Assembly (NCBI GenBank): GCA_002423155.1
Contig: DIUV01000048.1
Location: 517-64,516, forward strand
DNA from: Alphaproteobacteria bacterium UBA6149
GTDB taxonomy: Bacteria > Pseudomonadota > Alphaproteobacteria > Rickettsiales > UBA998
Reading direction: 5' to 3'
DNA length: 64,000 nt
Shown here one piece after another: positions 39,984 to 40,848 of the stretch. The position numbers and the translations under genes are program-made. Positions within the stretch are counted from its first letter, which is position 1, and each line of letters starts with the position of its first letter. The notes under the pieces are model-generated. The model made no database searches, was not told the origin of the DNA, and saw nothing but the letters and a program-made list of their open reading frames with translations.

Positions 39984-40037
39984 GCGCGGTACTATAGCGG
40001 TTTTTTTTATGCTGGCAAGCCTAGAGGAAGAACAGAT

Positions 40038-40229
40038 AGGGCAAAAGCACAAATCGTTAATTTTGTCTTTTTGCAATAAAACTCTCCTTTGTCATGCCGC
40101 TGTAGAGCGGCATCCATGCCAAACCATTGGCTTTTCAGCTTGTTGATAGGCATGGATACCGCCCTGCGGCGGTATGACGATGGATAAATTAGTAAAAACA
40201 ACGAAATTAACGATTTATGATTTTGCCCT
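40038..40229. mobile_element. full-length ~192-bp MITE-like palindromic element with an 11-bp direct flanking repeat
   Basis: AGGGCAAAAGCACAAATCGTTAATTTTGTCTTTTTG ... AACGAAATTAACGATTTATGATTTTGCCCT. It is flanked by GAAGAACAGAT at 40027-40037 and 40230-40240. Its core is inverted relative to the 32358 and 33899 copies. Confidence 0.9.
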
Positions 40230-40848
40230 GAAGAACAGATTTCTTCGCATCTGGTGGGCGGATATATAAAGGAACGGGTAAAAAATCGTCTGCTTTATCC
40301 AAATTGCGCAAGGCAAGTTGGGTGAGTAAAAAACCGTTACGGGAAACATCGTGAAAAATTGCTGTATCTTTAAGTGGCGTGTCCCAATCTACGGCATTGG
40401 TAGTGACGAGCTTGCTACAACCAGTTATTTCTGTTTGCGGTTGCATAATTGCTGGGGCGGTGCTTTGAGCATTTTTAAATATTTGCGTAAATAATTGTCC
40501 TCGACCAGCAGGCAGGGCGCAGATTATTTCTTCTGGTTTATTTTCTGCCATTAATTGCAGGGTGGAAAAGCCTAAAACTGGCTTTTTTGCCGCAAAACCA
40601 ATAGCCCGAGCACTAGCAAGCCCAATGCGAATCCCCGTAAACCCTCCCGGTCCAGTAGTAACGGCGAGGGCATCAAGATCGGCATAATCTTTATTTGCTT
40701 GTTGTAAAACCTGTTCAATCCACGGCAATAACATGGCGGCTTGTTGCTCACGATTATTACTGTGAAAGGCGCTGATTTCTTTTTCTCCTTGGGTTAAGGA
40801 AATACAAACTTCACCAAGGGCGGTGTCTATTCCGAGAATTAAGGGCAT
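40207..40848 (-). CDS. tsaB: tRNA t6A37 threonylcarbamoyltransferase complex protein TsaB (YeaZ)
   Basis: ILGIDTA, TGPGGFTGIRIGL and ARAIGFA motifs. The last 7 codons (QGKIINR) and the stop come from the inserted element. Confidence 0.85.
   Translation of the reverse strand: MPLILGIDTALGEVCISLTQGEKEISAFHSNNREQQAAMLLPWIEQVLQQANKDYADLDALAVTTGPGGFTGIRIGLASARAIGFAAKKPVLGFSTLQLMAENKPEEIICALPAGRGQLFTQIFKNAQSTAPAIMQPQTEITGCSKLVTTNAVDWDTPLKDTAIFHDVSRNGFLLTQLALRNLDKADDFLPVPLYIRPPDAKKSVLQGKIINR

Follow-up and report, generated by a model that had tools for sequence, protein, structure and literature searches.

The tsaB-miaB junction

The window analysed in this study is the whole 64-kb stretch of contig DIUV01000048.1 (positions 517 to 64,516, forward strand; assembly GCA_002423155.1, Alphaproteobacteria bacterium UBA6149). 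On its minus strand, the genes tsaB and miaB are separated by a 192-bp palindromic element at 40038–40229. The tRNA-modification gene tsaB was identified by TIGR03725 (121.8 bits, cut-off 69.3) and by PF00814 with TsaB-named homologues, and miaB by TIGR01574 (483.6 bits, cut-off 355.3). We consider it likely that the element is a composite MITE (a miniature transposable element bounded by inverted repeats), with ISAs1-like ends and a core of repetitive extragenic palindrome/Ssn-related motif (REP/SRM) hairpins, which transposed into the last codons of tsaB. The features of the junction, in the minus-strand order, are as follows.

40207–40848, minus strand: tsaB in its present form, 213 amino acids (aa); TIGR03725, PF00814
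40230–40240: target-site duplication, tsaB-side copy; codes for ...K-S-V-L of TsaB and supplies base 1 of its Q codon
40207–40230, minus strand: element-encoded TsaB tail, CAG GGC AAA ATC ATA AAT CGT TAA = QGKIINR-stop; the stop lies within the conserved TCGTTAA box of the inverted repeat
40038–40229: composite MITE of 192 bp that separates the truncated tsaB from miaB; terminal inverted repeats outside, two REP/SRM hairpins in inverted orientation inside
40195–40229, minus strand: right terminal inverted repeat, C|AGGGCAAAATCATAAATCGTTAATTT..., into which tsaB reads
40152–40179, minus strand: REP/SRM unit CGTCAT-ACCGCC-GCAG-GGCGGT-ATCCAT, consensus form, inverted relative to the following unit
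40090–40117, plus strand: REP/SRM unit TGTCAT-GCCGCT-GTAG-AGCGGC-ATCCAT, whose stem departs from the consensus by compensatory changes; matches the published SRM pattern
40038–40072, plus strand: left terminal inverted repeat, beginning AGGGCAAAAGCACAAATCGTTAATTT
39984–40076, minus strand: spurious 31-codon N-terminal extension of the miaB open reading frame (ORF), from TTG 40076 within the element
40027–40037: target-site duplication, miaB-side copy, GAAGAACAGAT, 10–11 bp
40007–40026, minus strand: stranded remnant of the ancestral tsaB 3′ end, (..P)LGLPA, with TAA at 40009..40007
39991–40018, minus strand: promoter-like site TTGCCA-16 nt-TATAGT (10 of 12 positions, consensus match only), between the element and the miaB ATG
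38640–39983, minus strand: miaB, 447 aa from ATG 39983; TIGR01574

MiaB homologues of 445 aa aligned across 100% of the 447-aa protein that starts at 39983, so the 478-aa ORF beginning at TTG 40076 is an artefact. This confirmed the claim of a first-pass annotation of this DNA that the 31-codon extension is spurious; the extension would be a by-product of the insertion. The deposited miaB model has 431 aa and begins 16 codons past ATG 39983 (39935–39983), and the homologues favour the upstream ATG.

Anatomy of the element and signature of insertion

The first-pass annotation had placed the element between perfect 11-bp direct repeats, and this proved correct. The repeat GAAGAACAGAT has exactly two matches in the window (40027–40037 and 40230–40240), against 0.06 expected from shuffled sequences, and none of 100 shuffles reached two. 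The two copies are identical at 11/11 positions and abut the ends of the element exactly. The terminal inverted repeats have 35-nt arms that are 86% complementary. A single long hairpin was predicted for the segment (−91.1 kcal/mol, z = −10.3 relative to shuffled controls), in line with the strong hairpin of about 190 bp that had been claimed between tsaB and miaB. The element is small (192–195 bp), has no transposase gene and is present in several copies, as MITEs are. A MITE of this kind would enter the last tsaB codons by a cut-and-paste or copy-and-paste DDE mechanism, leaving a target-site duplication of 10–11 bp.

The exchanged tail of TsaB

The TsaB C-terminus now reads ...PPDAKKSVL-QGKIINR and the gene ends ...PPDAKKSVLQGKIINR-TAA. 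The inverted repeat provides the last seven codons and the stop, as had been proposed from the first inspection. Computed excision of the element with one repeat copy gave a TsaB ending ...KKSVLPLGLPA, with TAA at 40009..40007, 23 nt before the miaB ATG at 39983, and this agrees with the tsaB end predicted earlier.

A P-P-D-A-K motif is conserved in 100 TsaB homologues and is followed by 2–106 residues (median 8) of no conserved sequence. The insertion point is four codons past this motif, and from the lengths of the homologues the exchanged residues fall in a variable tail. These residues are probably dispensable. In the reading frame that tsaB brings into the inverted repeat, a TAA is present, so only six residues were exchanged and the insertion appears to have been tolerated. 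The proposed step is a swap of the six non-conserved residues PLGLPA for the seven residues QGKIINR, which the cell would tolerate, and likewise in murD. Among 242 proteins compared (120 from the TsaB search, 120 from the MiaB search and two MurD alleles), a QGxxxxR ending was found only in TsaB and MurD of the window.

Other copies of the family and the murD fusion

The window contains three full copies (B, C and the tsaB copy), two hybrid copies (A and D) and four stand-alone cores. MITE ends were found at eight places, non-coding sites included. The copies other than that at tsaB are as follows.

30298–30529: hybrid copy A, different left module, core and right MITE inverted repeat; 40 nt downstream of ftsW
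32358–32555: full copy B, supplies the MurD tail QGNFTNR-stop; duplication GTAAcTGCTA / GTAAtTGCTA, 9/10
33899–34093: full copy C, at an intergenic site some 40 nt upstream of the murD ATG; perfect 10-bp duplication AATCTTTTTA, 10/10
35439–35709: hybrid degenerate copy D, architecture as in copy A
about 40907–41016, 53480–53590, 56937–57065 and 57404–57524: stand-alone cores

The C-terminus of MurD (TIGR01087), ...VSNY-QGNFTNR, is encoded within copy B; over 200 nt, this copy and the tsaB copy share 81.5% identity. The likeness of the TsaB tail to the murD fusion, pointed out in the first-pass annotation, therefore comes from the same family of elements. Excision of copy B restores a MurD ending ...VSNYG-stop, which places the insertion in the last two murD codons. 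The MurD family model stops at residue 433 of 442, ahead of the tail. A JGI allele of MurD (P0242; window 32532–32555) has a 1-nt indel in the inverted repeat and enters another frame, giving the different 23-residue tail QGQFYQSLNLSFCNKTLLLSCST. The indel is either a sequencing error or a real polymorphism; in both cases, the different tail shows that the MurD tail sequence is not constrained. Together, these results support the insertion of one MITE family into the last codons of both tsaB and murD, with the native tails replaced by a seven-residue, element-encoded tail and stop.

The 10-bp duplications of copies B and C lie outside C-AGGGC...GCCCT-G termini, and for this reason the tsaB duplication is best read as 10–11 bp. 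The duplication sizes in the family are 10, 10 and 10–11 bp. Flanking duplications are present at all three copies with outer inverted repeats, and none was seen at the stand-alone core copies. The element is two-layered: outer inverted repeats enclose an independent palindromic core.

A scan of metagenome contigs with the outer inverted repeats returned one unrelated contig, L030 (JGI Ga0116231_10095118), from a JGI contig collection that is incomplete for the host (the scan missed a JGI contig known to carry the element). At 326–1858, L030 has the same CAGGGCAAAAACACCAATCGTTAATTT end, but its inner palindrome of 68 nt is a different one and is interrupted by an IS110-family element (PF01548, PF02371). 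The same outer end with another interior indicates that the ends, not the core, define the mobile unit.

The REP core is attached at 30298–30529, 35439–35709 and 53402–53600 to a third repeat module, which has the consensus CCCTRCACGACAGYAYTATTAA and precedes the core by about 60 nt. In two of the three places the side opposite the module is a MITE inverted repeat, which suggests that recombination between cores gave rise to chimeras. A ParE-family toxin gene (PF05016) is located at 31753–32106 between murD and ftsW in the cell-division cluster, adjoining copy B. The stand-alone REP dimer near 40907 sits between tsaB and the gene for ETF-ubiquinone oxidoreductase, and a 19-bp tandem duplication (ATATATATCAGTATTATTC / ATATATATCAGTATTATCC, 40875–40912) abuts and overlaps its left edge.

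The stop codon built into the element ends

Reading frames were followed inward from nine ends, eight in the window and one from L030. In the frame xAG-GGC, all nine ends reach a stop after seven codons at the conserved TCGTTAA (TCTTTAA in copy D), and the translation is Q-G-x-x-x-x-R/L-stop, that of L030 included. The frame AGG-GCA stops after 4–13 codons in eight of the nine ends and after 32 in the other. The frame GGG-CAA runs through 13 to more than 60 codons without a stop, and in the tsaB copy it is open from end to end. At the miaB-side end of the tsaB element and in copy D, T is the flanking base, so a gene entering there would stop immediately, at TAG.

The conserved stop explains why the insertions in tsaB and murD changed so little. 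The first-pass annotation had suggested that the inverted repeat carries an early in-frame stop that makes insertions at gene ends survivable, and had proposed a genome-wide survey of its frame. In the nine ends read here, the stop after seven codons is indeed conserved; it serves one frame only, the third frame being open. Selection for it is unsupported by two cases: two fusions share one frame with a chance of one in three, and an adaptive stop is thus not demonstrated. An A+T-rich box bound by the transposase, together with the loss of harmful insertions, is sufficient to explain the fusions in the stop frame.

The open frame bears on another explanation, in which the event resembles those of the Rickettsia palindromic elements (RPEs) and an in-frame, translated module added a functional peptide to TsaB and MurD. 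The core belongs to the CGTC-1 type of REP, to which RPE-6 of Rickettsia conorii was assigned, one frame is open across all 192 nt, and the host appears to be a Rickettsiales-like alphaproteobacterium. However, translation ends seven codons into the element in both tsaB and murD. Element and duplication together measure 202–203 nt, a length not divisible by three, and read-through would thus fail to return to the frame of the gene. The JGI MurD allele moreover has a different 23-residue tail after its 1-nt indel. An RPE-style translated insertion is contradicted by these reading frames and was rejected as highly improbable.

Outer ends and the ISAs1 family

The outer ends read C-AGGGC(A/G)A...TCGTTAATTT. 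CAGGGC is present at 7/9 of the ends read, and T replaces the first C at the other two. Similar termini are found in the ISAs1 family of insertion sequences (IS). In ISArsp11, the inverted repeat is CAGGGCTGATGCAAAGTCG and the direct repeat is 10 bp long (PMC6305408). Ends were also read for the E. coli H-repeat (1291 bp, around yhhI; PF13808, PF01609) and for ISAs1-family elements on Aeromonas, Azospirillum and Methylocystis plasmids. All of them begin with CAGGG, and 10-bp duplications were read for the Aeromonas, Azospirillum and Methylocystis elements.

When anchored at the terminus, the MITE ends are identical to the left ends of ISAs1 and the H-repeat at 16–19 of 26 positions. Past CAGGGC, 10–14 of 20 positions match, a level reached by 3–90 of 20,000 shuffles. 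The CAGGGC termini, the likeness of about 26 nt to ISAs1-family inverted repeats and the 10-bp duplications together point to an ISAs1-family transposase. Such a transposase, encoded elsewhere in the genome or since lost, would mobilise the MITE in trans. The MITE shares CAGGG(C) termini and 10-bp duplications with ISAs1, the E. coli H-repeat/ISEc1 and ISArsp11. Unlike these elements, it has no transposase gene and measures 192 bp instead of 1.2–1.4 kb. A shallow literature search found no described MITE derived from ISAs1.

The REP/SRM core and the GIY-YIG nuclease

Each arm of the core has the form CGTC-ATACCGCC-GCAG-GGCGGTAT-CCA, that is, a CGTC/TGTC tag, an 8-bp stem starting with AT, a 4-nt loop and a CCA tail. 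CGTC-1 REPs are defined by the same four elements (PMC3733652). This class is predominant in Alphaproteobacteria, usually forms inverted dimers, and includes dRS3 of Neisseria and RPE-6 of R. conorii (PMC3733652). With the SRM search pattern taken from PMC11893778, there were 12 matches in the window, compared with 0.03 in random sequences of the same first-order composition. The matches always occur as inverted pairs, and two of the 12 are within the tsaB element. Stem variants are compensatory (ATGCCGCT/AGCGGCAT and ATCCCGCC/GGCGGGAT), which indicates that the hairpin itself is maintained. The core pattern was also found in several other metagenome-assembled genomes (MAGs), mostly labelled Rickettsiales or Alphaproteobacteria. 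The MITE interior can thus be described as an inverted pair of CGTC-tagged REP hairpins, a type that GIY-YIG Ssn nucleases bind and cut in single-stranded DNA, and the core pair also occurs alone both in this genome and in other uncultured Alphaproteobacteria.

A gene for such a nuclease may lie in the same window, 17 kb from the tsaB element.

57117–57407, plus strand: ssnA-like gene for a stand-alone GIY-YIG nuclease, 96 aa, bracketed by REP/SRM dimers at 56937–57065 and 57404–57524

The protein has only a GIY-YIG domain, and its gene is set between iscU and iscA. Identity between the two flanking dimers is 94%. Against the PDB, the protein matched only WD40 entries, all of them spurious. 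The arrangement hairpin, GIY-YIG gene, hairpin was also found at three MAG loci that had been fetched by the hairpin pattern only (L021, 5044–5418; L014, 4331–4772; L017, 7432–7800, with an internal stop codon). Ssn nucleases cut single-stranded DNA next to such hairpins and have the layout NTS-ssnA-NTS (PMC11893778), which the hairpin-flanked gene fits. SsnA itself is a single-domain GIY-YIG protein of CDD family cd10448. The gene at 57117–57407 is a candidate for the enzyme that acts on the hairpins in the tsaB element, and the tsaB-miaB spacer probably carries two of its substrates.

The core resembles CGTC-1 REPs, dRS3-NTS and other SRMs in the tag, stem, loop and CCA tail, in the inverted dimers and in the flanked GIY-YIG gene of about 96 aa. 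It differs from the CGTC-1/NTS systems in that the dimer is embedded in DDE-type inverted repeats and travels with a target duplication; the likeness of the nuclease to SsnA comes from its domain and layout. REP dimers inside a longer unrelated palindrome are known from Halothiobacillus neapolitanus (CGTC-1, 41-bp palindromes) and Anabaena variabilis (GTAG-15) (PMC3733652). For those nested dimers, no target duplication or IS-like terminus was reported, whereas the outer palindrome of the tsaB element has both.

Given this core, the whole element might have been moved not by a DDE transposase but by single-strand nicking through the REP/Ssn system and its GIY-YIG nuclease, with the flanking repeat arising from nicking or repair. 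In favour of this, the core consists of two SRMs, the same motifs flank the ssnA-like gene, the layout NTS-ssnA-NTS has been likened to an insertion sequence (PMC11893778), and a DDE transposase was not found in the window or the fetched loci. The distribution of duplications argues otherwise, with duplications at all three outer-repeat copies and none seen at the stand-alone cores. The outer ends match ISAs1-family ends, L030 has the same outer end with a different interior, and Ssn has been shown to cut single-stranded DNA, not to transpose. Movement by Ssn is accordingly very unlikely, and transposition through the ISAs1-like ends is preferred.

A further variant joins two mobile systems, in that an ISAs1-like DDE shell captured an Ssn hairpin pair and the TCGTTAA box serves both as transposase-binding site and as built-in stop. 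We regard this hybrid as quite unlikely. If it were true, each insertion would plant a single-strand nicking or recombination site, and the element would colonise the last codons of essential genes without killing its host. It would then offer a natural system for the in vivo role of Ssn and for the design of "soft-landing" transposon ends.

The isc operon (iscS-iscU-iscA-hscB-hscA-fdx, 57928–62200) is interspersed with a tacA/tacT-like pair, an MNT/HepT pair and a GNAT gene; the identities of these inserted genes rest on Pfam calls for the matching JGI contig.

Independent assemblies, relatives and the empty site

The insertion is present in independent assemblies. The exact TsaB, tail included, was found on two metagenome contigs (ENA ERZ27315062 and JGI 3300001605), both of which stop inside the element. 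The matching miaB contigs of the two assemblies start inside it, and the junction sequence is identical. The repeat-induced breaks on both sides, together with the identical junctions, exclude an assembly artefact in the window. MITE-family repeats break metagenome assemblies exactly at the tsaB-miaB site. Three further samples yielded contigs that match other parts of the window at about 100% identity, and the population therefore looks clonal. Samples SRR5323133, SRR943323 and JGI 3300012990 also hold this organism.

Identity to the closest homologue is 49% for TsaB and 70% for MiaB, both homologues coming from MAGs that are unnamed or called "Rickettsiales bacterium"; clustered at 90% identity, TsaB stands alone. 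These values indicate a deep-branching, uncultured alphaproteobacterium as host, none of whose close relatives has been sequenced. Its nearest relatives either have one or two opposite-strand genes between tsaB and miaB or carry the two genes at separate places, and the ancestral tight junction is therefore specific to this lineage.

Several observations weigh against a simple transposition with an ISAs1-type transposase. The empty site is predicted to contain the 25-mer CCTAGAG-GAAGAACAGAT-TTCTTCG. No close tsaB locus was found in 185,579 species-representative genomes, a search for the exact empty junction in JGI metagenome contigs gave no match, and the excised TsaB protein was absent from a collection of 15 billion proteins. 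The pre-insertion state is consequently reconstructed, not observed. The tsaB copy has no terminal C at its miaB-side end, and its duplication is either 11 bp with shortened ends or 10 bp with one damaged end. Its inverted repeats are of different subtypes, one arm being like copy A and the other like copy D, so that this copy may be a recombinant rather than a simple transposition product. The MITE ends have no likeness past CAGGGC to the Azospirillum, Methylocystis and ISArsp11 ends. Finally, no ISAs1-family transposase was found in the window or any fetched locus (tblastn, and Pfam on ORFs of unknown function), the host sequence covered being the 64-kb window and about 9 kb more; the assignment of the transposase to this family is one that we infer from the ends and duplications.

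The missing empty site would also suit the reading that no insertion took place, QGKIINR being ancestral and the 11-bp and inverted repeats due to chance or to an assembly artefact. With no TsaB relative above 49% identity in the data searched, neither an empty site nor a conserved tail could be found in relatives. A repeat expected 0.06 times abuts both ends of the element exactly, the sequence that encodes the tail also occurs in non-coding copies, the tail is absent from all the other proteins among the 242, and independent assemblies agree on both junctions. Both the chance repeat and the ancestral tail were rejected on these grounds, and an origin without insertion can hardly be credited.

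Possible consequences for the expression of miaB

By insertion, the tsaB-miaB junction would have been lengthened from 23 nt to about 226 nt, and it now holds a hairpin of −91 kcal/mol. A terminator scan called none at the element hairpin, and no T-run lies 3′ of the stem. A canonical intrinsic terminator was therefore rejected.

The predicted transcript start of the TTGCCA/TATAGT site lies at or beside the miaB ATG, and the site itself is made of the former last tsaB codons. Four promoter-like sites were found near the junction compared with 3.0 expected from shuffles, which is no enrichment, and we treat the site as a lead only. If it were real, miaB would never have relied on read-through from tsaB, and the insertion would not be polar.

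The hairpin might nevertheless have been kept because it is useful, as a regulatory insertion that uncouples, attenuates or stabilises the tsaB and miaB transcripts, or as a site of Ssn nicking or recombination. Its fold is very stable (z = −10.3), the tsaB stop codon is within its 5′ arm, the REP stems have compensatory changes, the ssnA-like gene is in the same window, and gene-adjacent MITEs and REPs have been reported to stabilise or destabilise mRNAs (PMC3733652). This is countered by the missing T-run and empty terminator scan, by the promoter-like site between the element and miaB, with which miaB may not need tsaB read-through, and by the other copies, which are in unrelated contexts. 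We regard a selected regulatory role as unlikely, and favour a tolerated transposition.

Relation to known families of repeats

The element resembles bacterial MITEs such as Correia/NEMIS of Neisseria, ERIC, RUP and QMITE1 of Coxiella, which are non-coding and multicopy, measure 70–300 bp, have terminal inverted repeats of 15–35 nt and target-site duplications, and form a strong hairpin when transcribed. Bacterial MITEs insert beside or into gene ends and yield ORF fusions (PMC3733652; PMC10969869). Rfam and tRNA scans of the window found nothing, and a plasmid search with the tsaB element gave no match. As far as tested, the sequence is thus unrelated to the named MITEs; it also differs from them in its 10–11-bp duplication and in an interior made of a REP/SRM dimer, not of degenerate IS remains. 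Like the RPEs, it is a palindromic repeat (100–150 bp in RPEs) that lands inside protein genes of a Rickettsiales-like genome, and RPE-6 is a CGTC-1 repeat. RPEs are typically in frame and translated through, whereas the tsaB element stops translation after seven codons and adds a length that is not divisible by three.

This is a new family in an uncultured bacterium, of a well-known kind, and it leaves the understanding of MITEs unchanged. Remodelling of gene ends by MITEs is documented for several families (PMC10969869), and nested REP dimers have been noted before. Its two points of modest extra interest are that the ends are probably of ISAs1-type origin and that they are paired with Ssn-type hairpins: an element of 192 bp ties together three literatures, those of ISAs1-type ends, CGTC-tagged REPs and the recently described Ssn nucleases. 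It is also a clean, datable example of how a compact, repeat-rich, Rickettsiales-like genome may tolerate transposition in the last non-conserved codons of essential genes. Three gene models (the C-termini of TsaB and MurD and the start of miaB) are distorted by this one repeat family.

Other repeats in the window

Several kinds of palindromic repeat are abundant in this genome. Long palindromes of other families are located at 19711–19856, 34094–34228, 42701–42863 and 43701–43819. A 117-nt dispersed repeat occurs as a pair at 12222–12338 and 55114–55228. Diverged tandem repeats of about 159 nt (15925–16634) lie inside a 1018-aa ORF with no assigned function (14516..17572, minus strand).

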